From NCBI GenBank assembly GCA_913020725.1, contig CAJWCD010000115.1:1-11643 (forward strand): DNA of 11,643 nucleotides, written 5' to 3'. The position numbers and the translations under genes are program-made. Numbering within the stretch: position 1 is the first letter of the stretch; every line of letters starts with the position of its first letter. The notes beneath the pieces are model-generated. The model made no database searches, had not been told where the DNA came from, and saw only the letters and a program-made list of their open reading frames with translations. Positions 976 through 11,643 of this stretch are shown in pieces. This stretch comes from an uncultured Pseudomonadota bacterium. GTDB taxonomy: Bacteria > SAR324 > NAC60-12.

Positions 976-2061
976 TCACGCCGGCAGTGCTTCAGCAGGA
1001 CGGGCCGTGGATTTGCTGACGATGAGTTGGCCGCATGCGCCCTGCACGTCCTGCCCCTTCGAGATACGCAGGGTCGCAACCACCCCACGGCCAAGCAGAT
1101 GTTGCTGAAAAGCACGGACGTCCTCCCAGTCCGGACGCTGGTACTTGCTACCGGGGGCTTCGTTGTAGGGGATGAGGTTGACCTTGAACTTGAGGCCGTG
1201 GAGCAACCGGATAAGCCGCTTGGCGTCGTCAACCGAATCGGTCACACCCTTCATGAGGATGTACTCGAAGGTGATGCGCCTATGCGATTCAAGGGGGTAT
1301 GCCTTGCACGCCTCCACAAGCCGCTGGAGGTTGTAGGTGCGGTTGACCGGCATCAGTTGGGTGCGCACCTCGTCGGTCACACCGTTAAGCGAAACCGCGA
1401 GGTTGGCCTTGACGCGCTCCTGCCCGAATTTACGAATTTGCGGGAGCAGTCCGGAGGTGGAAACGGTGATACGCCGCTGCGAGAAATTGAAGCCATATTC
1501 GTCCGTGAAAATCTCCAGTGCCCGCATCACGTTGGCGTAGTTGTGAAACGGCTCGCCCATGCCCATGAAGACGATGTTGCGCAGGTTGCCGCCGTCCGGG
1601 AGGTCGCACCTTGCCGCCAGCACCTGCATGACAATCTCGCCCGGAGTGAGGTTGCGGACCAAACCCATCTTGGCGGTCTGGCAAAAATCACAGCCCATGG
1701 CACAACCCACCTGCGAGGAGACGCACACCGTGTGGTGATCCGCGTGTTCCATCAGCACCGACTCGATGCTGCGCCCATCCTCAAGTACAAAACGGTACTT
1801 AATGGAACCGTCCTTGGAATGGAGAGCTTCGACAGGCTCCAAGCGGCCAATCCGGAAATGCGCACCCAGCGCGAATTTTGCAGGTTTGCCAAGGTTGGCC
1901 ATCTCCCCGAACCCAGCCACCCGCCGCTGGTAAAGCCAGGTGTACACCTGATCCGCCCGGTAGGCTGGAAGGTCTTGCGAAACCATCCACTCACGCAACT
2001 CCTGACGAGTCACATCCTGAATCAGCGGTATCGGATTCGATGGAGAAATAGAGTCGGACAT
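976..2061 (-). CDS. rlmN: Dual-specificity 23S rRNA (A2503-C2)/tRNA methyltransferase RlmN, radical SAM
   Basis: 361 aa. Contains CVSSQVGCAMGCDFC (CxxxCxxC plus the upstream catalytic Cys), RNLTPGEIV, NIVFMGMGEP, ITVSTSG, ITFEYIL, VNLIPYN and the C-terminal GACGQL (methyl-carrier Cys). Confidence 0.97.
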   Translation of the reverse strand: MSDSISPSNPIPLIQDVTRQELREWMVSQDLPAYRADQVYTWLYQRRVAGFGEMANLGKPAKFALGAHFRIGRLEPVEALHSKDGSIKYRFVLEDGRSIESVLMEHADHHTVCVSSQVGCAMGCDFCQTAKMGLVRNLTPGEIVMQVLAARCDLPDGGNLRNIVFMGMGEPFHNYANVMRALEIFTDEYGFNFSQRRITVSTSGLLPQIRKFGQERVKANLAVSLNGVTDEVRTQLMPVNRTYNLQRLVEACKAYPLESHRRITFEYILMKGVTDSVDDAKRLIRLLHGLKFKVNLIPYNEAPGSKYQRPDWEDVRAFQQHLLGRGVVATLRISKGQDVQGACGQLIVSKSTARPAEALPA

Positions 2062-2090
2062 TGAGACTGGGGTTTATTTGGTGACTTTTG

Positions 2091-2119
2091 ATTCTACGGG
2101 AAAAACCCAACTCCCGCAA
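2091..2119 (-). promoter_or_regulatory. Candidate sigma70 promoter for rlmN
   Basis: Minus strand TTGCGG-17 nt-TAGAAT, 29 nt upstream of the ATG at 2061. Confidence 0.5.
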
Positions 2120-2240
2120 CTGCTTTCTAGCATCCCCAGAACCGAGCAACAGTCTCTGTCTACGAACAGGGGGTCTCCGCTTCAACAATGTGATTTAAGC
2201 GCACTACAGCGATTCGGTCACCAACTGGACGTCAATGATA

Positions 2241-2290
2241 TTGTCAATTCTTGTGAATTTGTGTATGGTTAGACTTTGCTAGTCTGACAA
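2241..2290 (+). promoter_or_regulatory. Candidate sigma70 promoter for the transporter operon, overlapped by two FadR/GntR-type operator boxes
   Basis: TTGTCA (2241-2246)-17 nt-TATGGT (2264-2269). TGGTTAGACTT (2266-2276) and TAGTCTGACAA (2280-2290) fit TNGTNNNACNA with 1 and 0 mismatches. Confidence 0.45.
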
Positions 2291-2360
2291 GGATTGGACT
2301 AGGTAATAATACGGCTGCATAGTCGCCATTTTTAGATTCAATAATCGTTTGGAGGTTATC

Positions 2361-3305
2361 ATGAAAGGAATCGTTGTCGCACTGTCTTTGGGGTTCACTC
2401 TGCTGATGGGAGGTTTGTCTTCTCCAGTTTGGGCGGATTCCAAGGATGCCATCAAGATCACACTCCATGACTGGACGGGGCAGTACGTCACCACCAAGAT
2501 CATGGGTGCAGTGCTCAAAAAGGGGGGCCACGCGGTGGAATATGTGCAGGCGGACTACATCGCCCAGTTTGCCGGTCTACAGTCGGGCGACCTGCACGTC
2601 GCCATGGAAATTTGGGAAACCACAGGGCGGGACGCGATGGATGCGGCCACTGCCACGGGCAAGGTCGAGAATCTTGGTGAAACCGGAATGAAAGCCATTG
2701 AGGAGTGGTGGTATCCCTCCTACATGGAGGAACGCTGCCCGGGGTTACCCAATTGGGAAGCCCTCAATGACTGCGCCGCAGTGTTCTCAATTCCAGAAAC
2801 CGCCCCTCATGGCCGCTATCTCGGTGGTCCCGTCACTTGGGGTGGTTATGACGACGAGCGTGTCGAAGCGCTGGAACTCGATTACGAAGTGGTCCATGCT
2901 GGCACCGACGCCGCGCTCTTCGCGGAACTAGAATCGGCCTACCAGCGCAAGGCACCTATCCTGCTTTGGGTCTATGCCCCACACTGGGCGGTTTCCAAGT
3001 ACAAGGGCAATTGGATCGACTTTCCCAAGTACACCGCCGAGTGCTACAACACTCCCTCATGGGGTAGCAACTCACACATGGCGTATGACTGTGGCAAACC
3101 CCGAGGACCGATTTGGAAGGTCGCCTGGTCCGGGGTGAAAGATAAGTGGCCCAGTGCCTACAAGGCCATCAAGAACTTCAACATCAACAACGATGAAATG
3201 GGCCAGATGATCGCTGAAATTGATCTTCAGAAAAAAAAGCTAGAGGACGTCGTCGCCGCGTGGATGCAGAAGAACCAATCCCGCTGGAGCCAGTGGCTCC
3301 AGTAA
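2361..3305 (+). CDS. ABC transporter substrate-binding protein, glycine betaine/proline (ProX/OpuAC) family, TmoX-like
   Basis: RBS GGAGG at 2351-2355 and a signal peptide (MKGIVVALSLG...VWA-D); 314 aa. Motifs EEWWYP, CPGLPNWEALNDCAAVF, GRYLGGPVTW, ERVEAL, YDCG and KVAWSGVKDKWP resemble TMAO-binding TmoX-type proteins as recalled. Confidence 0.9.
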   Translation: MKGIVVALSLGFTLLMGGLSSPVWADSKDAIKITLHDWTGQYVTTKIMGAVLKKGGHAVEYVQADYIAQFAGLQSGDLHVAMEIWETTGRDAMDAATATGKVENLGETGMKAIEEWWYPSYMEERCPGLPNWEALNDCAAVFSIPETAPHGRYLGGPVTWGGYDDERVEALELDYEVVHAGTDAALFAELESAYQRKAPILLWVYAPHWAVSKYKGNWIDFPKYTAECYNTPSWGSNSHMAYDCGKPRGPIWKVAWSGVKDKWPSAYKAIKNFNINNDEMGQMIAEIDLQKKKLEDVVAAWMQKNQSRWSQWLQ

Positions 3306-3383
3306 CGCGGTGCAGCCTCATGCCCTGTTCACGCTAGAAATGCGGCTGAGCCTTCCCCACTCTGCCCTCTCGATGCTCTAGGC

Positions 3384-3421
3384 CATTGCGGATACCATGC
3401 GCTCTTCGGGTATCCGCAATG
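3384..3421 (+). repeat. Perfect 13-bp inverted repeat between binding-protein and permease genes
   Basis: CATTGCGGATACC (3384-3396), a 12-nt loop, then GGTATCCGCAATG (3409-3421). There is no U-tract directly after it. Confidence 0.8.
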
Positions 3422-3497
3422 TGCTGTCCCTACCAGTCCCTGTTTTTTCTCCCCGGTTCATGATACTTTCCCAATTTTCACCCCGTTGGGAAAACAC

Positions 3498-5483
3498 ATG
3501 AACCGGTTCTTCCTGAGAAAATCCACACAAGGATGGTTGCTTCTCATCCTGTTGCTTGGGATCGTCCTCCTGTTCGATGCCGGACTCTTCCCCCAGTGGT
3601 CCCTCAAGTACCCCATGGCGTGGCGGATTCCTCTGCGCTACTGGATCACGGACCTGATGCACTGGCTGGTGAACGACACCCCTAGCCTCATCAACCTCAC
3701 CGGCATCACCTTCAAGGAAATCACCCGTTTTATTGCTGCCCTTCTCACCTACCCTCTCGATTTTTCCATTGATCTGCTTTCCACCGGATTCCGCTTTGAA
3801 CCGGGAGACGGACCTGCGGACATTCCCCGGCTCCCGTGGTTGACGGTTGCGGGGTGCAGCCTCTGGCTAGCCCACCGCATGGGTGGGAAGCACCTCACGC
3901 TACTGGTGGGTGCCTGTTTAGCGTACCTCATCGCCTTTGGCCAATGGACCAGTGCAATGATGACCCTCTCCTCCATTTTGATCGCAGTGCCGATTGGAGT
4001 GGTAGGTGGCGTGGCATTGGGGATTCTGGCCTTCCGGGTGCCCGGTTTAGAAAAACCGGTCACCACCCTGCTCGATTTGATGCAGACCGTGCCCGTTTTT
4101 GCCTACTTGGTTCCGGTGTTGTTCCTGTTCGGCTTTGGTCCCGTGGCGTCCATGATCGCCACCATCATCTATGCCATGCCGCCGATGGTACGCACCACCA
4201 TACTCGGCCTGCAACGGGTTCCGGAAGACATCGTGGAGTTTGGGAAAATGGCGGGTTGCACGTCAAGACAGCTACTCTGGAGGGTGATGATGCCTTCTGC
4301 CCAACAAACCCTGATGGTAGGTGTCAACCAAGTGATTATGCTCTCGCTCAACATGGTGATCATCGCCTCCATGATTGGAGCAGGCGGCCTGGGGTTTGAT
4401 GTCCTCTCCGCCCTGCGGAAGCTTGATATTGGTGCGGGATTGGAAGCTGGGTTAGCAATTGTCGTACTGGCAATTATCTTGGATCGTCTCAGTCAAAAAT
4501 ATGCCGAACTGCACGGGCATTACCAATACTCGGCCCATAAAACGACATGGGTTCAGCAGTACCGCCTGTTGTTCCTGATTGCCAGTGTCTCGCTGTTGCT
4601 GGGAGTGCTGTGGTCTCCCTTGCACACGTTTCCGGAGCCGTGGGAGGTGACCACCGCGCCATTTTGGGAGGCACTCGTGAAGTGGATTAACATCAATCTC
4701 TTTGACTACCTCGATGCTTTCAAAAACTTCATCCTGCTCAACGTGCTGATTCCCGTCAAACGCTTTTTGCTGAAAGCCCCATGGCCTGTGACGGTTGTCC
4801 TCGTCAGTTATGCCGGCTACCGTCTTGGCGGCTGGAAACTCGGAGTGGGGTTACTGGCTTTGGTGTTGTTTTTAGTCGTCAATGGTCTCTGGCCCAAGGC
4901 GATGGTCACAGTGTACCTTTGTGGGATGTCCGTGCTGTTTGCCGCATTGCTGGGTGTGCCTTTGGGGGTGTGGGCTGCCGAGAATGAACGGGTGCATCGA
5001 ATCTTGATGGTCGGGGTGGACACCCTACAAACTCTGCCCTCGTTTGTTTACCTCATGCCCGTGGTGATGCTCTTCAAGGTCGGAGATTTTTCAGCGATGA
5101 TCGCCGTGGTCGCCTACGCCATTGCCCCTGCAATTCGCTACACGGATTTGGGAATTCGCAAAATCCCCGCACCCCTGCTCGAAGCTGCGGTCATCTCCGG
5201 GTGCACACGCCATCAGCTCCGCTGGCAGGTCAAACTCCCCCTTGCCTTCCCAGAAATCATGCTGGGCATCAACCAAACGGTGGTGATGGCGTTGAGCATG
5301 CTAGTGATCACCGCCTTGGTCGGCACCCGGGAGTTGGGGCAGGAAACCTACATCGCCCTCACCAAAGCCGACACTGGACGTGGCTTGGTCGCTGGAGTGG
5401 CCATCGCTTGCATCGCAATGATCGTTGACCGGCTCATCAGTGTCTGGAGTCTGGAGCGCAAGCGACAACTGGGCCTAGCTTAA
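3498..5483 (+). CDS. Betaine/proline-family ABC permease with two fused ProW-like membrane domains
   Basis: 661 aa, hydrophobic. Two copies of the ProW core: LDLMQTVPVFAYLVP / VDTLQTLPSFVYLMP; EAA loops VPEDIVEFGKMAGCTSRQLLWRVMMP / IPAPLLEAAVISGCTRHQLRWQVKLP; GVNQVIMLSLNMVII / GINQTVVMALSMLVI. Confidence 0.92.
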   Translation: MNRFFLRKSTQGWLLLILLLGIVLLFDAGLFPQWSLKYPMAWRIPLRYWITDLMHWLVNDTPSLINLTGITFKEITRFIAALLTYPLDFSIDLLSTGFRFEPGDGPADIPRLPWLTVAGCSLWLAHRMGGKHLTLLVGACLAYLIAFGQWTSAMMTLSSILIAVPIGVVGGVALGILAFRVPGLEKPVTTLLDLMQTVPVFAYLVPVLFLFGFGPVASMIATIIYAMPPMVRTTILGLQRVPEDIVEFGKMAGCTSRQLLWRVMMPSAQQTLMVGVNQVIMLSLNMVIIASMIGAGGLGFDVLSALRKLDIGAGLEAGLAIVVLAIILDRLSQKYAELHGHYQYSAHKTTWVQQYRLLFLIASVSLLLGVLWSPLHTFPEPWEVTTAPFWEALVKWININLFDYLDAFKNFILLNVLIPVKRFLLKAPWPVTVVLVSYAGYRLGGWKLGVGLLALVLFLVVNGLWPKAMVTVYLCGMSVLFAALLGVPLGVWAAENERVHRILMVGVDTLQTLPSFVYLMPVVMLFKVGDFSAMIAVVAYAIAPAIRYTDLGIRKIPAPLLEAAVISGCTRHQLRWQVKLPLAFPEIMLGINQTVVMALSMLVITALVGTRELGQETYIALTKADTGRGLVAGVAIACIAMIVDRLISVWSLERKRQLGLA

Positions 5484-5538
5484 TCTGGAAACAGTTTGCG
5501 TGTATCGATCGCGGATCTTAACAAAGCCTAAGAACACC

Positions 5539-6423
5539 ATGATTGACGAAATTAGCCGACGTGTGGAAACGCTGTCGTACTGGCAGCAACCGATCCTGAG
5601 TGCCCCCCTAGAGGGCGGCATCACCAACCGCAACTTTCGGGTGAAGCACGGTGACGAAACTTTTTTCGTGCGTCTGGGTGAGGACATTCCGGTTCACGGA
5701 GTTTATCGCTTCAACGAACTCGCCGCCAGCCGCGCTGCCCATGCCGCCGGACTTTCTCCGGAAGTCGTCCACGCCGAACCCGGAGCGCTGGTGCTGCGTT
5801 TCATCGAAGGACAGACACTGAACGCGGCAGAAGTCCGGAATCCGAAACGGCTTCTCACGTTGGTTGATCTGTTGAAAACCTGCCACCATGAAATGCCCAA
5901 ACACCTGCCCGGCACCGCGTTGACCTTCTGGGTGTTTCAGGTGATCCGGGGCTACGCAAAAACGCTGCGCGAGGGTGAAAGCCGCATGGTTCCAGTCCTG
6001 CCACGCTTTCTCGAAATCAACTCTGCGTTGGAACACACGGTTGGTGCCATTGAACTGGTGTTCGGACACAACGACCTGCTCGCGGGTAACTTCATTGACG
6101 ATGGCAAGCGGCTTTGGTTGATCGACTGGGACTACGCTGGCTTCAACAGTCCGCTTTTTGACCTTGCCAACCTTACTTCCAACAACGAGTTTTCGGAAAA
6201 GCAGGAGCACACGCTGTTGGAGGAGTACTTCGAATCGCGTACTGACAAGGACTTGTGGCGGCGCTACCACGCCATGAAGTGCGCGTCCTTGCTGCGCGAG
6301 GCGATGTGGGGCATGGTTTCAGAAATCCACTCCGAACTGGATTTCGATTTCGTCAAGTACACCGCCGAGAACCTTGAACGCTTTGAAAAAGCCCACACCC
6401 ATTTTGTGGAAAATATTGCATGA
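5539..6423 (+). CDS. Choline/ethanolamine kinase-like phosphotransferase (APH/ChoK superfamily)
   Basis: 294 aa from ATG 5539. ATP loop LEGGITNRNF, Brenner motif HNDLLAGNF, and metal-binding motif LIDWDYAG followed by PLFDLAN. Confidence 0.9.
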   Translation: MIDEISRRVETLSYWQQPILSAPLEGGITNRNFRVKHGDETFFVRLGEDIPVHGVYRFNELAASRAAHAAGLSPEVVHAEPGALVLRFIEGQTLNAAEVRNPKRLLTLVDLLKTCHHEMPKHLPGTALTFWVFQVIRGYAKTLREGESRMVPVLPRFLEINSALEHTVGAIELVFGHNDLLAGNFIDDGKRLWLIDWDYAGFNSPLFDLANLTSNNEFSEKQEHTLLEEYFESRTDKDLWRRYHAMKCASLLREAMWGMVSEIHSELDFDFVKYTAENLERFEKAHTHFVENIA

Positions 6424-6441
6424 CCGCTTCAGCATGGAAAA

Positions 6442-6476
6442 TTCGTTCATCCTTCGACACGCACAGGACGAACGGG
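6442..6476. repeat. REP-like intergenic palindrome
   Basis: CGTTCATCCT (6444-6453)-TCGACACGCAC-AGGACGAACG (6465-6474), 9/10 paired. It resembles the dispersed CCCTTCGACAnGCTCAGGACGAACGG-type repeat family as recalled. Confidence 0.6.
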
Positions 6477-6546
6477 ACACATTGAAACCACTATTTTTTC
6501 TAAATCCGTGTCCATCAGCGGCAATAAACCTTTTTCCTCAATGATT

Positions 6547-9042
6547 ATGACCACCCCCGTTCCGGAACATGCACAACACGTCATCATCGGCGGTGGCATC
6601 ATTGGATGCAGCGTCGCCTACCACCTCGCCAAGGAGGGCGCAAAGGATGTCCTCTTACTTGAGCGCGGACAACTCACCTGCGGCAGCACCTTCCACGCCG
6701 CCGGACTCGTGGGGCAGTTGCGCAGTTCGGCCAACACCACACGGCTGCTCAAGCACAGCGTGGACCTCTACCGCACCATTGAGTCGGAAACCGGACAGGC
6801 CACGGGCTGGAAGATGAACGGCGGATTGCGGCTCGCCTGCACCAAGGAACGCTGGATCGAACTCAAGCGCCAGGCGACCACTGCCCACAGCTTTGGGCTG
6901 GAGATGGAACTGCTCTCTCCGGACGATGCCCAAAAGCTCTGGCCGCTGATGACGACTGACGATTTGGTCGGAGCCGCCTTTCTGCCCACTGACGGACAGG
7001 CCAATCCCTCCGACATCACCCAAGCCCTCGCCAAAGGGGCACGGATGCGCGGGGTGCGGATCATCGAGGAAACCCCGGTCACGGGCATCCGGGTGGAAAA
7101 CGGACGCGTCGCCGCCGTGCAAACCCCAAACGGGGAAATCCGTTGCGAGGTCATCATCAACTGCGGAGGTCAGTGGGCCAAGCAGATCGGGCGCATGGCA
7201 GACGTGACGGTGCCCTTGCAATCCGTGCAGCACCAGTATTTGATCACCGAACCCATCGAGGGCGTGACCCCGGACTTGCCGACCCTGCGCGATCCGGATC
7301 GGCTCACCTATTGGAAGGAGGACGTGGGCGGTTTGTGCATGGGCGGCTACGAACCAAACCCGGTCCCGTGGGCGTTGGACGGCATTCCGGAGGATTTCAC
7401 GTTCCAGCTGCTTCCGGAAAACTGGGAGCATTTCGAACAGTTCATGCAACCTGCGGCACAGCGTGTTCCGATTTTTGAGCAAGCGGGCATCCGCAAGTTC
7501 ATCAACGGCCCAGAATCCTTCACCCCGGACGGAAATTTCATGCTCGGTGAAGCCCCGGAGTTGCAGAATTTCTTTGTGGGGGCTGGCTTCAACGCCTTTG
7601 GCATTGCCTCCGCAGGCGGGGCGGGGAAGTCGCTCGCGGAGTGGGTGCTGGCCGGGGAGCCGCCGCTGGACTTGTGGGTGGTGGACCTGCGGCGTTTCAG
7701 CACGGTGCATCAGGACGAAGCATGGGTCCGGAACCGCACCCTTGAACTCTACGGCAAGCACTACACGCTCAGTTGGCCGCACGAGGAGCACGAAAGCGGT
7801 CGCCCAAATCTGACCTCGACGCTCTACGACACGCTCAAATCGCAGGGCGCGTGTTTTGGCTCCAAGCTGGGCTGGGAGCGTCCGAACTGGTTTGCACCCG
7901 CCGGAGTGCCGCCCAAAGATGAGTGCTCCTACGGACGGCAAAACTGGTTCCCGCACGTTGGCGAGGAACACCGGGCCGTCCGGGAACGGGTGGGAGTGAT
8001 CGACCAAAGTTCCTTCGCCAAATTCCGGGTGGTTGGACCTGATGCGGAATCCGCACTCTCCCGGATTTGTGCAAACAACGTGGCCAAACCGCCCGGTTCG
8101 CTCACCTACACGCAACTGCTCAACTCGCGGGGCGGCATCGAGTGCGACCTGACGGTGGCCCGCTTTGCCGAAAACGAGTTCTACTTCGTCACAGGCACCG
8201 GATTCCGCACCCACGATTCCGCGTGGATTCGCAGTCAGCTCAGACCCGGAGAGCAAGTGGAGTTGCAGGACATCACCGAAGAGGGCGCGGTGCTTTCCGT
8301 GATGGGTCCGGCCTCCCGTGAGGTGCTGTCCGCCCTGACCGGGACACCGTTGGACAACGAGCGGTTTCCGTTCGGAACCTGTCGAAAACTTGATCTCGCG
8401 CTCCCAAAAGCTGTAAATCCCTCCTGCGCCCCCCTTTGCCAAAGGGGGGATGGGGGGATTTGGGCGCTCCGCATCACCTACGTCGGCGAACTTGGCTGGG
8501 AGTTGCACCTGCCCCGTGAAGCGGCGAAACCGATTTACGACGCACTCTTCGAGGCCGGAGCTGCGCACGGCATCGCCAACGTGGGCTACCGTGCCATCGA
8601 ATCGCTGCGGCTGGAAAAAGGCTACCGTGCTTGGGGGGCCGACATCACGCCGGACAGCACTCCACTCGAAGCGGGACTCGGCTGGGCCGTGAAGCTCAAA
8701 TCCGGCGTGGAATTCAGTGGGCGAGAGGCTTTGCTAACGCAACAGCAGGCACCTTTGACAAAGCGGCTGGTTGGCTTCACCGTTGCTGATCCGGAGGTGG
8801 TGCTGCTTGGGCGCGAATCAATTTTTCGCAACGGCGAACTTGTGGGCTGGCTGACCAGCGGGGGGTGGGGTTATACTGTCGGACAGAACATCGGCTACGG
8901 CTACGTCCGCAATCCCATAGGCGTGGACACCGAATTCCTGAAATCCGGAAACTACGAACTGGAAGTAGCCTGCGATCGCATTCCCTGCACCCTGCACCTG
9001 AAGCCCTTGTACGATCCCGGAATGCAACGCATCCGGAGGTGA
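6547..9042 (+). CDS. FAD-dependent oxidoreductase with C-terminal GcvT/THF-binding domain (dimethylglycine/sarcosine dehydrogenase family)
   Basis: About 831 aa (ATG 6547 or 6541). Contains IIGGGIIG (FAD), GSTFHAAG (flavinylated His position), NGPESFTPDG, GWERPNWF, DQSSFAKF, GGIECDLTV, RITYVGELGWELH and SLRLEKGYR. Confidence 0.95.
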   Translation: MTTPVPEHAQHVIIGGGIIGCSVAYHLAKEGAKDVLLLERGQLTCGSTFHAAGLVGQLRSSANTTRLLKHSVDLYRTIESETGQATGWKMNGGLRLACTKERWIELKRQATTAHSFGLEMELLSPDDAQKLWPLMTTDDLVGAAFLPTDGQANPSDITQALAKGARMRGVRIIEETPVTGIRVENGRVAAVQTPNGEIRCEVIINCGGQWAKQIGRMADVTVPLQSVQHQYLITEPIEGVTPDLPTLRDPDRLTYWKEDVGGLCMGGYEPNPVPWALDGIPEDFTFQLLPENWEHFEQFMQPAAQRVPIFEQAGIRKFINGPESFTPDGNFMLGEAPELQNFFVGAGFNAFGIASAGGAGKSLAEWVLAGEPPLDLWVVDLRRFSTVHQDEAWVRNRTLELYGKHYTLSWPHEEHESGRPNLTSTLYDTLKSQGACFGSKLGWERPNWFAPAGVPPKDECSYGRQNWFPHVGEEHRAVRERVGVIDQSSFAKFRVVGPDAESALSRICANNVAKPPGSLTYTQLLNSRGGIECDLTVARFAENEFYFVTGTGFRTHDSAWIRSQLRPGEQVELQDITEEGAVLSVMGPASREVLSALTGTPLDNERFPFGTCRKLDLALPKAVNPSCAPLCQRGDGGIWALRITYVGELGWELHLPREAAKPIYDALFEAGAAHGIANVGYRAIESLRLEKGYRAWGADITPDSTPLEAGLGWAVKLKSGVEFSGREALLTQQQAPLTKRLVGFTVADPEVVLLGRESIFRNGELVGWLTSGGWGYTVGQNIGYGYVRNPIGVDTEFLKSGNYELEVACDRIPCTLHLKPLYDPGMQRIRR
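8415..8461. repeat. 47-bp palindromic element lying in frame inside the GcvT-family gene
   Basis: AAATCCCTCC-TGCG-CCCCCCTTT-GCC-AAAGGGGGG-AT-GGGGGGATTT. The inner 9-bp stem is perfect and the outer 10-bp stem has one G-T pair. It encodes NPSCAPLCQRGDGGI. Confidence 0.85.
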
Positions 9043-9093
9043 TACCCGACACGGCTGTTTTCAACATCATCCTTTTCACCCAGCATACGGCGT

Positions 9094-9873
9094 ATGAACC
9101 TTCACGAAGTTGCAACCTGCCTATTGGAGGAGTTCGACGCTCGCAGACCGAGTGCCATTTTTGGACGCTCTGATTTGAACCTCAGCATCGATGACGCCTA
9201 CGACGTGCAATTCGAGGTTGCGGCCATGCGTCAGTCCCGAGGTGAACGCGTAGCTGGATACAAAATTGGCTGCATCAGTGACACGATGCAAAGGCAGCTT
9301 GGAATTGACCATCCCGTGTTTGGCCACGTGTGGGACTCGGAAATCCATCGATCTGGCGCCCATCTACGACCACAGGACTTCGATGGTTTGGCGATTGAAG
9401 GCGAACTCGCGATTCGACTTCAAGACGATGTCCCCTCTTCGGCATGGCTACGGAACAACCCTGAAGTGGTGGCTCGTCACCTAGCCGTCATTGAACTGCA
9501 TAACTATGTGTTCCGTGGTGCGGAATCAAATAGAGCGGCTGAACTCGTCACGAATAATGCGATCCATGCCGGGGTGGTCATTGCCGACGAGGAAGCAGCG
9601 TCAAACAATTTCAACCCGAATTCGATATTGCAAGTAGATCGAAACGCGGAACGCCTTGGAGAAGGGGTTGCGGCTCATCTCCAAAATGGCCCCGTTGACA
9701 TTGTGGCGGCCGTATCTGAGCATCTCGAACGCCGTGGACTCCACCTAATGCGAGATCAGATCATACTTACGGGCTCGCCCTTGCCCCTTTGGAGGGTTGC
9801 ACCCGGAGATCGTATCACTGTGCGCTGTGATGGTCTTGCCGACGTTTCTTGTACGATCGCGGAGTGGCACTAA
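9094..9873 (+). CDS. 2-keto-4-pentenoate hydratase/decarboxylase-like protein (MhpD family, FAH superfamily)
   Basis: 259 aa. Motifs SIDDAYDVQ, GERVAGYKIG, QRQLGIDHPVFG, IEGELAIRL, NNAIHAG and QIILTGS. Divergent from canonical MhpD, so the substrate is not assignable. Confidence 0.85.
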   Translation: MNLHEVATCLLEEFDARRPSAIFGRSDLNLSIDDAYDVQFEVAAMRQSRGERVAGYKIGCISDTMQRQLGIDHPVFGHVWDSEIHRSGAHLRPQDFDGLAIEGELAIRLQDDVPSSAWLRNNPEVVARHLAVIELHNYVFRGAESNRAAELVTNNAIHAGVVIADEEAASNNFNPNSILQVDRNAERLGEGVAAHLQNGPVDIVAAVSEHLERRGLHLMRDQIILTGSPLPLWRVAPGDRITVRCDGLADVSCTIAEWH

Positions 9874-9945
9874 CAAATTGCTCAACCGGAGCGGCGGTTG
9901 GGCGCGTGTTCTGTGTTTCGGAAGTCGCTGACCACCGCCCGGTTA
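9868..9945 (+). mobile_element. Truncated integron attC-like site
   Basis: The stop codon lies in CACTAAC (R''-like), followed by AAATT and GCTCAAC (L''-like with an extra C). Left arm AACCGG-A-GCGGCGG pairs with CCACCGCCCGGTT (9932-9944) with a single bulged A. The sequence diverges after GTTA (9945), so R' is missing. Confidence 0.65.
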
Positions 9946-10196
9946 CGGGGCTAATGAACACCATTCTGACTGCGCTCATCGCCTCTACGTTCTACCCGAC
10001 CAAACCGGAAATGAGGGGCGTCGTTTTACAGGGGGCCGTCGTTCCCATTACTCCGTAAATTCAATAAAAACTCGCAAAACTCAGGTTAGTCTAGCGCAGG
10101 TGGTTCTATTACCAATAGGGTCTACTAGGAATTGCTATAAGTTGAATCTTGAGCCGCTCCGTGGATACTGAACGGGACGCTTTGAAAGCAACTGCA

Positions 10197-11300
10197 ATGG
10201 GAGGACACTTGAAGCTCGGATTTTTCACGATGCCGATTCATCCGGCATCCCGCGACTACACCCAAACGCTCCGGGAGGACCGTGAAGCGATACTGTTGGC
10301 AGACCGTCTGGGGTTCGCCGAAGCATTCATCGGAGAGCATTTCACGGACCTCTGTGAAACCATTCCCTCCTGTCTGTCCTTCATTGCGAGCCTTGCCCAC
10401 GACACCCGGCAGATCAGGCTGGGCAGCGGCACAGTAAACCTGCCGAACAGCCATCCGGTGCAGGTCGCGGCGCACGTTTCCATGATTGATCACTTGCTGG
10501 AAGGTCGCTTTCTCTTCGGCATTGGCCCTGGAGGGCTGCGCTCCGACTGGGAGGCGATGGGCAATCTGGACGCAGACCGCAACGCTATGTTTGTGGAGGC
10601 GATTGAGCAGATTCTTGCGATTTGGACGGAGGAGGCGCCGTACAACCTGAAAGGACGCTACTGGACGGTTTCCACCGAGCAAACCCTGATCCCAGAAGCC
10701 GGACAGGGTATCATCCTGCCGCCTTTCCAAAAACCGCACCCCCCGATTCTGGTGACCGCGATTGCACCTCATTCTCGGGGAATCGTTGCAGCGGCGGAGC
10801 GTGGTTGGAGCCTGATTTCTGCGAATTTCACGCACACGAAGTGGATTGCGACGCATTGGCCGAAGTATGTGGAGGGCTGTGAGCGGGCCGAACGTATGCC
10901 GGACCCTGCGGATTGGCGGGTGGCCCGCAGTATTTTTGTTGCTGAGGAGGACGCCACGGCACGGCGCTACGCCCTCGATCCGGAAGGTGCGTATGGCTAC
11001 TACTACTGGAATTTGATGACGAAGCGCCGGAGGGGCAATGCGCTGGGTGTCTTCAAGGAGGATCCGGAAATGCCGGATTCCGAATGCACCCTCGACTATG
11101 TGCTGGAGCGGCTGGTGCTGTGGGGCAGTGTGGAAACGATGGTCGAGAAAATCCTTGTCCTGCGCGAAGAACTTGGACCCTTCGGCACTCTGCTTTACTG
11201 TGGACACGACTGGGTGAATCCCGAACTCGCCCGGCGTTCCATGGAACTGCTGGCCACGGAGGTGTTGCCCCGAGTCAATCAGGCGTTGGGGGAGACCTGA
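10197..11300 (+). CDS. Luciferase-like (LLM class) flavin-dependent monooxygenase
   Basis: Motifs KLGFFTMPIHP, ADRLGFAEAFIGEH, TRQIRLGSG, HPVQVAAHVSMIDHLLEGRFLFGIGPG, PFQKPHPPI and SMELLATEVLP. Start is ATG 10197, or TTG 10209 behind GGAGG (10200-10204). Confidence 0.92.
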   Translation: MGGHLKLGFFTMPIHPASRDYTQTLREDREAILLADRLGFAEAFIGEHFTDLCETIPSCLSFIASLAHDTRQIRLGSGTVNLPNSHPVQVAAHVSMIDHLLEGRFLFGIGPGGLRSDWEAMGNLDADRNAMFVEAIEQILAIWTEEAPYNLKGRYWTVSTEQTLIPEAGQGIILPPFQKPHPPILVTAIAPHSRGIVAAAERGWSLISANFTHTKWIATHWPKYVEGCERAERMPDPADWRVARSIFVAEEDATARRYALDPEGAYGYYYWNLMTKRRRGNALGVFKEDPEMPDSECTLDYVLERLVLWGSVETMVEKILVLREELGPFGTLLYCGHDWVNPELARRSMELLATEVLPRVNQALGET

Positions 11301-11333
11301 TCCAAGGCTGAGACAACATCGGCGGCATGGAGT

Positions 11334-11643
11334 TCAGGCTGCGACCTGTTGTGCTGTGGGTTGGAGGTTGAGAAACTGCATCATCCAACTCGCCGATCCG
11401 CCTGTGGACAATGCTCCGGCGTTCGCCATACCCACCGCGTGTTCCTTTGCACTGAAATCTGTCGTGTTCGTGCCTACGTCCGCGCTGAACGTCTGAGCGT
11501 AATCGTTTACCCTCGTTGCATAGCTGATCGCTGTTTGACGGTAATCGTCTGTAGTGTTTTGATACCCTAATGCCGTGTCCCGCGCCGCCTGTGCTGCCGT
11601 CTTTGCCGCCTCAACAACGGTACTCGTACCCCACGCAATCACG
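11334..11643 (-). CDS. Partial ORF resembling a phage structural/tail-fibre-like protein (5' end outside window; C-terminus possibly truncated)
   Basis: Ala/Thr-rich EAAKTAAQAARDTA followed by TTDFSAKEHAVG...GGSA, reminiscent of SAKE(W/Y/H)A repeats of phage fibre-like proteins. The frame is open at the window edge. Confidence 0.45.
   Translation of the reverse strand, partial: VIAWGTSTVVEAAKTAAQAARDTALGYQNTTDDYRQTAISYATRVNDYAQTFSADVGTNTTDFSAKEHAVGMANAGALSTGGSASWMMQFLNLQPTAQQVAA

Follow-up and report, generated by a model that had tools for sequence, protein, structure and literature searches.

A predicted import, phosphorylation and N-demethylation gene cluster for methylated ethanolamines in a SAR324 bacterium

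What would a TmoX-like uptake system, a choline-kinase-fold kinase and a folate-dependent flavin demethylase do together? The question is raised by four intact, co-oriented open reading frames at 2361-9042 on the forward strand of an 11,643-nucleotide contig from an uncultured marine SAR324 bacterium (hereafter the window), which encode in order a TmoX-like binding protein, a fused double ProW permease, the kinase and a DMGDH-family flavoprotein. The first-pass annotation had read them as a route that imports, phosphorylates and demethylates a hydroxylated N- or S-methylated osmolyte. Here we use sequence comparison and conserved gene context to ask how far this reading holds and which substrate it favors.

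Results

Reading the ATG starts from the sequence reproduced both the coordinates and the claimed gaps of 192, 55 and 123 nt, and Pfam and NCBIfam profiles together with solved-structure matches upheld the claimed protein families. A 299-nt divergent spacer separates the binding-protein gene from rlmN on the reverse strand (976-2061; Radical_SAM and RlmN_N domains; TIGR00048, 396.5 bits, cut-off 290), a radical-SAM rRNA/tRNA methyltransferase gene that marks the upstream boundary and lies outside the module. The spacer holds a forward-strand promoter-like hexamer pair (TTGTCA, 17 nt, TATGGT; 2241-2269), which is weak evidence; sigma-70-like matches across 1900-11643 were not above chance (1 found, 3.4 expected from shuffles). 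Between the binding-protein and permease genes, a perfect 9-bp inverted repeat read from the sequence (GCGGATACC ... GGTATCCGC; 3388-3417, forward strand) may form an mRNA hairpin and was not called by the terminator scan.

Two further co-oriented genes, overlooked earlier, lie downstream of the flavoprotein gene. One of them, starting 51 nt past it (9094-9873, forward strand), encodes an FAA-hydrolase-family protein resembling HpaH/MhpD hydratases or decarboxylases (PF01557, 30.1 bits; HpaH model, 88.4 bits, below the cut-off of 351.5). None of 60 related loci carries a homologue, and the gene is a doubtful member of the module. The only non-coding terminator-like site from the binding-protein gene to the end of the co-oriented run is a stem-loop at 9879-9904 (forward strand; 10-pair stem, 6 G-C pairs), terminator-like sites overall being no more frequent than chance (8 found, 10.0 expected). 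Given this position and the proximity of the FAA-hydrolase-family gene, transcription as one unit may extend beyond the four genes claimed.

The first gene (2361-3305, forward strand; ATG at 2361, GGAGG ribosome-binding site 7 nt upstream) encodes a periplasmic substrate-binding protein of OpuAC fold (PF04069, 164.1 bits) whose best solved relative is Ruegeria pomeroyi TmoX (4xz6, E 2.9e-70). The earlier label of "TmoX-like" suits its fold and nearest relative and fits its pocket less well. Of seven pocket residues (W38, W85, G89, E114, W160, W203 and Y205), four are shared with characterized TmoX from R. pomeroyi and Pelagibacter HTCC1062, including Glu114, counterpart of the TmoX Glu that hydrogen-bonds the ligand oxygen. 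The other three of the seven TMAO-contacting positions differ. The window protein falls in a kinase-linked subfamily whose copies all replace TmoX F106, F220 and W222 by G/A, W and Y, respectively (G/A89, W203 and Y205 in 7 of 7), whereas four unlinked paralogues carry M/I/F, F/Q and W.

As with TmoX, the binding protein is partnered with a fused ProW-type permease (3498-5483, forward strand; ATG at 3498), here a 665-aa chain with two transmembrane domains (two BPD_transp_1 matches) that hits the choline ABC permease model TIGR03416 in two stretches (414.1 bits, cut-off 363). Permease orthologues (51-60% identical) adjoin the kinase in eight loci. In seven of these, orthologues of the binding protein, the permease or both stand beside the kinase/flavoprotein pair, as they do in Ruegeria sp. 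THAF33, in Salipiger abyssi and in a genome from the same family as the window. Unlike TmoXWV systems, the window cluster has no tdm or tmm nearby and no TmoV-type ATPase. The lack of any ABC ATPase gene within the cluster had escaped the first-pass annotation; in 5 of 7 related transporter-bearing loci such a gene sits between binding protein and permease. A tblastn search of the 93.3%-complete assembly found no ProV-type or TmoV-type ATPase, its best ABC ATPases being TOBE-type with 41-43% identity. As encoded in the window, the transporter is incomplete.

The third gene (5539-6423, forward strand; ATG at 5539) encodes a small-molecule kinase of the choline/ethanolamine-kinase (APH) fold, assigned to clade kin1 and single-copy in the genome (PF01633, 74.2 bits against a cut-off of 29; PF01636, 66 bits). 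Its HxDxxxxN and DWxY motifs are intact when aligned to the solved relatives 3dxq (E 5.5e-23) and LicA (4r77, E 5.4e-15). In the lic operon (LicA with LicB, LicC and LicD), as in the window, the kinase gene adjoins a transporter; unlike that operon, the window has no cytidylyltransferase or LicD, and the partner of its kinase is a catabolic flavoprotein. The best NCBIfam model is GntI, a pre-guanitoxin N-oxide kinase (167.6 bits, below the cut-off of 357), which is also the curated model that each of the three kinase clades matches best (136-168 bits against the same cut-off), so that another hydroxyl acceptor is possible.

The fourth gene (6547-9042, forward strand; ATG at 6547, alternatives at 6541 and a GTG at 6508) encodes an FAD oxidoreductase joined to full-length GcvT folate domains (Pfam DAO, FAO_M, GCV_T and GCV_T_C), a four-domain architecture identical to that of DMGDH, sarcosine dehydrogenase and Arthrobacter DMGO (4pab, 5l46 and 1pj5; E 5.6e-166 to rat DMGDH, 4pab). 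Numbered on the 844-aa frame from 6508, the covalent-FAD His63 is conserved and His242/Tyr268 align with the DMGO His225/Tyr259 dyad. Based on this architecture and these residues, we predict the same chemistry, in which the flavin oxidizes an N-methyl amine and folate captures the one-carbon unit.

Relatives and neighbors set the flavoprotein apart from DMGDH, sarcosine dehydrogenase and DMGO. It falls in a separate, supported 22-member clade of kinase-linked enzymes (clade A), and the genome's paralogues on contigs C133 and C39 fall outside; the C133 copy adjoins MttB, RACo and MTHFR-like genes, a betaine route. Its conserved neighbors are kinase, phosphatase and ethanolamine genes, not betaine genes. 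Rat and human DMGDH, DMGO and the C133 and C39 paralogues also differ from the window protein at its HAAGLVGQLR, DGQ and GPES motifs; the first of these is common to the kinase-linked clades, and those five proteins lack its Arg. The Arg is not exclusive to kinase-linked enzymes, as it also occurs in a kinase-less Sinorhizobium meliloti homologue (52% identity) encoded between taurine and aminoethylphosphonate genes. Another paralogue in the genome, on contig C114, is 50% identical to the window flavoprotein with the same sequence signature, making it a candidate enzyme for a second demethylation.

We surveyed 60 species-level loci gathered by kinase similarity, in which related genomes are not independent. 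In 41 of them, spanning five or more phyla, a gene of the DMGDH family lies no farther than 1.5 kb from the kinase (26 on the same strand, 15 on the opposite one). Ten loci scored as non-adjacent comprise three with the gene in the same cluster and seven that truly lack it, and nine are indeterminate. The kinase/flavoprotein pairing, which the first-pass annotation had placed in other bacteria too, is thus syntenic across phyla; the fusion survey yielded no reliable support for apparent kinase fusions. Against a same-genus relative, dN/dS is 0.10 for the kinase and 0.09 for the flavoprotein, values that indicate purifying selection, and together with the adjacency in 41 loci they argue that the grouping exceeds chance. 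All five inspected plasmid-borne orthologues of at least 60% identity are adjoined by the kinase and a DeoR regulator.

These results bear on whether there is a dedicated pathway at all. The cluster could instead be a TMAO/choline importer (TmoXW) that supplies Tdm and BetA encoded elsewhere, an ordinary dimethylglycine/sarcosine dehydrogenase and a LicA-type kinase for surface decoration. TmoX proteins bind TMAO and, as characterized, choline as well (Kd 2.5 uM; PMC8918994), and the assembly yielded no ProU/TmoX-type transporter other than that of the window. The genome also carries a true Tdm (contig C199; NF053776, 1221.9 bits, cut-off 1100) and BetA (contig C128; 829 bits, cut-off 732), so that the earlier statement that no TMAO demethylase is present is correct for the window and incorrect for the genome. 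With the ligand-binding Glu retained, TMAO or choline could be imported. We nevertheless regard the absence of a dedicated pathway as very improbable, since the pocket signature sets the binding protein apart from characterized TmoX and from the unlinked paralogues in related genomes, the pair is syntenic, and the flavoprotein clade is distinct from the paralogue in the betaine-type cluster. In addition, the window has neither licC, as had been claimed, nor licD, and a genome-wide LicD search returned only a 33-position partial match outside it.

We identified five separate contexts elsewhere that link the pair to ethanolamine or phosphoethanolamine. In four SAR324 loci a full-length homologue of phosphoethanolamine N-methyltransferase (PMT; 5wp4, E 1.9e-57; Plasmodium PfPMT 3uj6, E 3.2e-39, residues 4-250 against 12-265) lies directly upstream of an orthologous kinase 67-70% identical to that of the window. 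Seven PMT residues, which we take to be catalytic or phosphobase-site positions, align identically. The PMT pathway of plants, nematodes and Plasmodium shares the intermediates proposed here (P-Etn, P-MME, P-DME and P-Cho) and runs in the opposite direction, by SAM-dependent methylation; the query used found no PMT homologue in the window or genome. EutBC adjacency occurs in 1 of the 60 loci, that of Xanthobacter autotrophicus DSM 431, with the order DMGDH2-kinase2-IMPase-DMGDH1-binding protein-ATPase-permease-kinase1-EutB-EutC (EutB, NF011649, 721.7 bits, cut-off 554). One inspected plasmid, from Nitratireductor OM-1, carries kinase-DMGDH-eutH beside DeoR. In two Planktophila loci the kinase precedes an ethanolamine-permease-like gene (TIGR00908, 362.4 bits, below the cut-off of 381.75) and has GS-like, ALDH and SDR genes on its flanks. 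Finally, Salipiger abyssi encodes IMPase and DeoR beside transporter-kinase-DMGDH-ETF beta/alpha-FolD-PurU-amidohydrolase-GS family-ALDH-Fe-ADH, a set that by product names fits the gamma-glutamyl ethanolamine route (PMC10132767).

None of these contexts points to another amino alcohol, which argues against the possibility that the substrate is a different hydroxylated N-methyl amine, whether another N-methyl amino alcohol or an N-hydroxy or N-oxide compound that, as with GntI, receives the phosphate on N-O, with the ethanolamine genes being lineage-specific add-ons. The GntI matches would fit such a substrate, as would a binding protein that is nearest to a TMAO binder and keeps Glu114, the varied transporter types beside the pair (ABC, EamA, APC and EutH) and the additional OYE/FadH-type flavoprotein and second methyltransferase in the SAR324 loci, whose EamA neighbor matches no solved transporter, LicB included. 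Those GntI scores fall below the curated cut-off and may reflect GntI being the sole named member of its branch, and we consider a different amine unlikely.

Discussion

We consider the most likely mechanism, at a probability of roughly 55%, to be that a methylated ethanolamine is imported and O-phosphorylated, and that its phosphate ester is then oxidatively N-demethylated in a THF-dependent reaction. The TmoX-like protein would hand the cationic amino alcohol, N,N-dimethyl- and/or N-methyl-ethanolamine, to the fused permease, powered by an ATPase from elsewhere. The kinase would form phospho-dimethylethanolamine or phospho-monomethylethanolamine, trapping the solute and supplying the anionic handle used by DMGDH-family active sites, a phosphate ester for the window flavoprotein in place of the carboxylate of the DMGDH family. 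The flavoprotein would oxidize the N-methyl C-N bond of the tertiary or secondary amine and pass electrons to ETF, and its GcvT domain would capture the resulting iminium, or formaldehyde, to give 5,10-methylene-THF. Flavin amine dehydrogenases cannot oxidize a quaternary nitrogen, making choline itself a chemically unlikely substrate of the flavoenzyme, and TMAO, carnitine, gonyol and sulfocholine likewise.

Steps past this demethylation are not encoded near the window cluster, which has no DeoR, phosphatase or ethanolamine-consuming genes, and tblastn found no EutB or EutC in the assembly. Elsewhere the pair travels with ETF, FolD/PurU, genes consuming free ethanolamine and an IMPase-family phosphatase that scores 276.6 bits (cut-off 275.15) with histidinol-phosphatase HisN, an esterase of amino-alcohol phosphates. 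In such fuller regulons a second kinase/demethylase pair could finish demethylation to phosphoethanolamine, from which the phosphatase would free ethanolamine for EutBC or the gamma-glutamyl route.

The steps could also run in reverse, the flavoprotein demethylating free N-methylethanolamines and the kinase then phosphorylating ethanolamine, for example for a phospho-lyase or lipid synthesis. None of the results fixes the step order, the kinase is a choline/ethanolamine-kinase-family enzyme, and the window is without a phosphatase. From gene context we infer that the kinase acts first: a HisN-like phosphatase alongside enzymes for free ethanolamine implies that phosphorylation is transient and precedes demethylation, and would make a terminal kinase futile. 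Two kinases and two demethylases in one operon also fit phosphorylated intermediates better, no class-III aminotransferase or phospho-lyase gene adjoins the pair in annotated loci, and characterized DMGDH-family substrates bear an anionic group (PMC5082570). We therefore give the reverse order a low probability.

We found no literature description of this kinase/flavin-demethylase route. The closest precedent is the cobalamin-dependent choline:THF methyltransferase of Eubacterium limosum (MthK/MthB/MthC/MthA), in which phosphorylation of choline precedes N-demethylation onto THF and the phosphate is proposed to stand in for the carboxylate normally bound by the demethylase family (PMC12155760). 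Its product, dimethylaminoethanol phosphate (PMC12155760), is the compound proposed as substrate here. Compared by description only, MthK is a serine-kinase relative whereas the window kinase has the choline-kinase/APH fold, and the Mth demethylase is an MttB-family enzyme of an anaerobe acting on a quaternary amine whereas ours is an FAD/ETF-linked dehydrogenase for tertiary and secondary amines only. Biochemical work on MthK/MthB, an enzyme type unlike ours, has demonstrated kinase-first demethylation (PMC12155760). The core logic of the first-pass annotation is retained in our reading and its breadth is not, as the context points to N-methylated ethanolamines rather than to S-methyl compounds or osmolytes in general. 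Together, conserved gene context best supports a predicted module that imports, phosphorylates and demethylates these compounds and in which the phosphate would serve as anionic handle.

Organization and conservation of the module

The module consists of four co-oriented genes on the plus strand, encoding a periplasmic binding protein (2361–3305), a fused double permease of the ProW type (3498–5483), a kinase of the choline-kinase fold (5539–6423), and a DMGDH-family flavoprotein (6547–9042), and the gaps of 192, 55, and 123 nt listed in the first-pass annotation were reproduced from the sequence. A 299-nt divergent spacer separates it from rlmN upstream. Downstream lie an FAA-hydrolase-family gene (9094–9873, 51 nt past the flavoprotein), a terminator-like stem-loop (9879–9904), and a luciferase-like monooxygenase gene (10149–11300); in no related locus does either gene accompany the module, and promoter and terminator scans of the window gave no excess over chance. 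The window is an entire contig (C115, 11,643 nt) of a 3.45-Mb assembly in 204 contigs that is 93.3% complete. The closest relatives of its proteins come from SAR324-cluster metagenome-assembled genomes, with kinase identities of 67–71% and of 83% to the counterpart in a same-genus genome. Values of dN/dS against the same-genus locus L003 (0.10 for the kinase, 0.09 for the flavoprotein) indicate purifying selection.

A perfect inverted repeat (9-bp arms, 12-nt loop) occupies 3388–3417, in the spacer that separates the binding-protein gene from the permease gene; it may stabilize or attenuate the mRNA and so adjust how much binding protein is made relative to permease. A paralogue of the luciferase-like gene, 84% identical, is found elsewhere in the source genome (C148:87–1175), and neither copy recurs with the module in related loci. 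A 663-aa OYE/FadH-type Fe-S flavoprotein (Oxidored_FMN and Pyr_redox_2 domains) precedes the kinase in SAR324 loci (L007:7887–9878), whereas its 78%-identical orthologue in the source genome adjoins Ldh_2 and amidase genes (C132:5936–7942), which indicates that the module was rearranged in the window lineage.

A survey of gene neighbourhoods, suggested in the first-pass annotation, found the pairing of kinase and GcvT-domain enzyme elsewhere: 41 of 60 species-level loci have a DMGDH-family gene no more than 1.5 kb from the kinase, on the same strand in 26 and on the opposite strand in 15 (mostly freshwater Actinobacteria). Because these loci were gathered by kinase similarity and close relatives are not independent samples, the counts describe the kinase neighbourhood and carry no statistical test. 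Ten of the 60 have no such gene within 1.5 kb despite flanks of at least 3 kb, three of which (L020, L021, L045) still hold a DMGDH-family gene in the same cluster, and nine are too short to score. Carriers of the pair span SAR324, Alpha-, Beta-, and Gammaproteobacteria, Planctomycetota, Chloroflexota, and Actinomycetota. Five plasmid- or chromid-borne orthologues of at least 60% identity were inspected in cultured strains, and all five adjoin the kinase and a DeoR regulator. Among relatives of the window the kinase is patchy (9 of 41 searched genomes, the window's own counted). We conclude that the module is real and conserved, and incomplete in the window.

The suggested search for kinase, GcvT, and binding-protein fusions yielded no reliable ones. 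It returned 23 longer proteins with a kinase domain, 16 of which also align to the flavoprotein; three kinase proteins are joined to permease sequence, and one candidate, P0142, has a DAO domain by Pfam yet no alignment to the flavoprotein. All candidates are single-member clusters and most are without the last 40–60 kinase residues. We read these proteins as frameshift or gene-calling artefacts and did not count them as evidence for pairing. Two full permease-kinase 'fusions' (P0121 and P0122), 72% identical to each other and from different long contigs, carry about 160 out-of-frame Arg/Pro/Gly-rich residues at the same place, most likely a recurrent frameshift from systematic assembly error, the alternative being a real shared frameshift.

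A distinct clade of kinase-linked flavoproteins

Members of the DMGDH/SARDH/DMGO family were defined by the order DAO, FAO_M, GCV_T, and GCV_T_C in a single chain of about 800–850 aa, and the window flavoprotein has this order, with 251.4, 61.4, 265.9, and 71.2 bits, all above the Pfam cut-offs. Its GSTFH63AAG segment corresponds to GSTWHAAG in the rat and human DMGDH sequences, and we take the histidine to be the covalent FAD attachment site. His242 and Tyr268 align with His225 and Tyr259 of DMGO, the catalytic dyad named in PMC5082570.

The source genome encodes four DMGDH-family members including this one. In a tree of 41 rows (35 full-length kinase neighbours, three re-extracted sequences, and three paralogues from the source genome, with ten shorter family members omitted), the window flavoprotein falls within a well-supported 22-row clade of kinase-linked enzymes. 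The paralogues on contigs C133 and C39 lie outside this clade, and the one on C114, at a contig edge and 50% identical, is its sister. Kinase-linked clades and the C114 paralogue have HAAGLVGQLR, DGQ, and GPES in common; the equivalents of GLVGQLR are GLTTYFH in rat and human DMGDH, GLVFQTN in DMGO, GLITHFI in C133, and GLLPLFN in C39, all of which have DGH or DGL for DGQ and GPI for GPES. Arg72 of HAAGLVGQLR, numbered on the 844-aa ORF from 6508, is a candidate phosphate ligand. The separate clade, the altered signature residues, and the different gene context are indirect hints that the substrate may be other than the carboxylates dimethylglycine or sarcosine. Databases usually label the flavoprotein 'dimethylglycine/sarcosine dehydrogenase' or 'FAD-dependent oxidoreductase' and the kinase 'thiamine kinase-like' or 'phosphotransferase'; routine annotation misassigns the pair to betaine catabolism.

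HAAGLVGQLR is not exclusive to kinase-linked enzymes, because a kinase-less DMGDH-like gene on a Sinorhizobium meliloti Ak57 megaplasmid (L084:9001–11478, 52% identical) carries both it and GPES. This gene sits beside DeoR, between taurine/sulfoacetaldehyde and aminoethylphosphonate genes, and its product may be a demethylase for N-methyl-taurine or N-methyl-aminoethylphosphonate. The occurrence of the signature here hints at a larger subfamily that may act on 2-aminoethyl compounds with non-carboxylate anions. The C133 paralogue (39% identical to the window enzyme, without the GQLR signature) belongs to a cluster (L067:330–9068) with an MTHFR-like gene, a RACo corrinoid activase, an MttB-superfamily methyltransferase (782.8 bits), and, on the other strand, an unassigned 602-aa ORF, probably a betaine-to-dimethylglycine route.

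The kinase

By profile the kinase belongs to the choline/ethanolamine kinase family (APH fold), with 74.2 bits for PF01633 (cut-off 29) and 66 bits for PF01636 (cut-off 23.2). Alignment to 3dxq and LicA 4r77 matches two segments, fgHnDllagNfi and liDWdYagfN, which we take to be the HxDxxxxN catalytic loop and the DWxY choline-kinase motif. Relatives are abundant in ocean metagenomes (7,996 scored, single 90%-identity clusters holding at most 1,667 member sequences). The best-scoring model for all kinase clades is GntI, the pre-guanitoxin N-oxide kinase, though at 167.6 bits for the window kinase and 136–157 bits for other clades it stays below the NCBIfam equivalog cut-off of 357. That an N-hydroxy kinase is the best model in every clade speaks for another hydroxylated N-methyl amine as the substrate; with all scores below cut-off, we consider this unlikely.

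A lic system needs LicC and LicD beside the kinase, whereas the window annotation shows neither. The first-pass annotation had seen no LicC-type cytidylyltransferase, and none is among the window's profile matches; across the genome, the LicD profile PF04991 matched only in part, over 33 positions of contig C100. An EamA neighbour of the SAR324 pair was rejected as a LicB-type choline permease, as it had no solved-transporter match (best E 0.39, unrelated proteins).

Binding protein and transporter

The first-pass annotation called the binding protein TmoX-like, and TmoX is indeed its nearest relative by sequence (4xz6, E 2.9e-70), but the full seven-residue TMAO pocket is not conserved. This pocket comprises W55, W102, F106, E131, W177, F220, and W222 (PMC8918994). 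Four of the seven are identical in the window protein, among them the Glu bonded to the ligand oxygen, and three are changed (F106 to G, F220 to W, W222 to Y). All seven kinase-linked copies (window, L013, L016, L020, L021, L024, L080) have G/A, W, and Y at these positions, whereas four unlinked TmoX-like paralogues of related genomes have M/I/F, F/Q, and W, as in characterised TmoX. Because the pattern divides kinase-linked from unlinked copies, the window protein appears to represent a separate specificity subfamily, and it could possibly bind TMAO or choline. Ocean surveys take tmoX counts to stand in for TMAO use, and if these TmoX-like binding proteins do form a specificity class of their own, that would bear on such counts.

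TmoXWV has a TmoV ATPase partner and a tdm/tmm link; by contrast, no ATPase gene adjoins the binding protein or permease in the window, and Tdm, though encoded in the genome, lies on a separate 3-kb contig. Both Tdm and BetA are encoded on contigs other than the window. A choline or TMAO importer could also stand beside a plain DMGDH and a LicA-type kinase as a mere chance neighbourhood, which, set beside the recurring pair and the kinase-linked clade and pocket pattern, seems very improbable.

The first-pass annotation overlooked that the window has no ABC ATPase gene between binding protein and permease. An ATPase adjoins the permease in the operon in five of seven related permease-bearing loci (L013, L016, L020, L021, L034), as well as in a genome of the window's own family (G023), Ruegeria sp. 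THAF33, and Salipiger abyssi; binding protein leads directly to permease in the window and in the alphaproteobacterial locus L024. In the L024 genome a 60%-identical ATPase sits in a second TmoX-type operon, which makes supply in trans plausible. No ProV-type ATPase was found in the window assembly, whose best ABC ATPases are TOBE-type with 41–43% identity, and the module ATPase would either be encoded in sequence that the assembly lacks or be shared with another system. The true TMAO demethylase gene of the source genome (C199:643–2997, locus L082; NF053776 1221.9 bits, cut-off 1100) reaches the end of its 3-kb contig, where its transporter context is unassembled; the missing TmoV-type ATPase is possibly in these surroundings.

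Ethanolamine and phosphobase contexts

Five gene contexts elsewhere point to ethanolamine and its phosphate. In four SAR324 loci, a full-length phosphoethanolamine N-methyltransferase (PMT) homologue lies directly upstream of the orthologous kinase (L004:177–920, L008:9246–9995, L010:9229–9984, L029:9246–9995), matching the second domain of Arabidopsis PMT1 (E 1.9e-57) and nearly the whole chain of Plasmodium PfPMT (E 3.2e-39). Seven PfPMT positions that we take to form the catalytic dyad and phosphobase site (Y19, H132, Y160, Y175, R179, Y181, K247) are all identical in the aligned SAR324 homologues. Phosphobase methylation is usually attributed to plants, nematodes, and protozoa alone, which makes the SAR324 homologue notable in itself. 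With the query used, no PMT homologue was found in the window genome.

In Xanthobacter autotrophicus DSM 431 the order is DMGDH2, kinase2, IMPase-family phosphatase, DMGDH1, binding protein, ATPase, permease, kinase1, EutB, EutC. Nitratireductor sp. OM-1 has a DeoR gene beside kinase, flavoprotein, and eutH, and in two Planktophila genomes the pair lies between GS-like/ALDH/SDR genes and an ethanolamine-permease-like gene (TIGR00908, 362.4 bits, just below the cut-off of 381.75). Salipiger abyssi JLT2014 combines IMPase and DeoR with binding protein, ATPase, permease, kinase, and flavoprotein, then ETF beta, ETF alpha, FolD, PurU, amidohydrolase, GS-family, ALDH, and Fe-ADH genes. ETF together with FolD and PurU fits a dehydrogenase that gives electrons to ETF and one-carbon units to folate. 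The module phosphatase reaches the HisN cut-off (276.6 against 275.15 bits), and histidinol-phosphatase HisN hydrolyses an amino-alcohol phosphate. By product names only, the last four Salipiger genes match the gamma-glutamyl route for ethanolamine that PMC10132767 shows in Phaeobacter. For the window genome, tblastn found no EutB or EutC, and its two IMPase-family genes are both in unrelated contexts.

A proposed kinase-coupled demethylation route

Most likely, the module demethylates methylated ethanolamines by a route that couples a kinase to a folate-linked flavoprotein, a reading to which we assign a probability of about 0.55. Dimethyl- and monomethyl-ethanolamine would be taken up and converted to their phosphate esters, the dedicated DMGDH-like clade would demethylate these onto folate, and, in fuller versions of the module, a HisN-like phosphatase would then dephosphorylate the resulting phosphoethanolamine. 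The flavoprotein retains the covalent-FAD histidine, the equivalents of the DMGO dyad, and complete folate domains, and the kinase its catalytic loop and choline-kinase motif. Flavin amine dehydrogenases require a tertiary or secondary amine, so phosphocholine and TMAO are poor candidates, and the phosphate esters of dimethyl- and monomethyl-ethanolamine are competent ones. Kinase, phosphatase, and free-ethanolamine enzymes in one regulon make sense together only under transient phosphorylation, from which we infer that the demethylations take place on the phosphate esters; the reverse order, with demethylation before phosphorylation, we think improbable.

In Eubacterium limosum, MthK phosphorylates choline and so lets the MttB-family enzyme MthB demethylate it, and the authors of PMC12155760 argue that the phosphate replaces the carboxylate normally bound by the MthB family, the product being dimethylaminoethanol phosphate. 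That type has a corrinoid MttB-superfamily methyltransferase beside the kinase, whereas the window kinase adjoins a flavoprotein, and the MttB homologue of its genome is on C133, next to RACo and a DMGDH paralogue and away from the kinase. In full-text searches of a literature collection with few subscription journals, we found no description of a kinase-coupled DMGDH-type demethylase or of oxidative demethylation of phospho-methylethanolamines. More tentatively, at slightly less than even odds, the module would stand for a widespread, undescribed aerobic phosphobase catabolism in SAR324, Alpha-, Beta-, and Gammaproteobacteria, freshwater acI Actinobacteria, and Chloroflexota, joined in SAR324 to a bacterial PMT in a node of phosphobase methylation and demethylation, the methylation half of which has so far been known only in plants, nematodes, and protozoa. 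The hypothesis lends itself to direct testing, as cultured strains (X. autotrophicus DSM 431, Ruegeria sp. THAF33, and S. abyssi JLT2014) carry the module in complete form.

Methanogens and partly methylated phospholipid head groups are sources of dimethyl- and monomethyl-ethanolamine. Both compounds also arise from anaerobic choline demethylation (PMC12155760). If true, the route would account for what becomes of these two amines under aerobic conditions, a step missing from the methylated-amine cycle, and would be a second, mechanistically independent case in which phosphorylation fits an amino alcohol to a carboxylate-type demethylase family.
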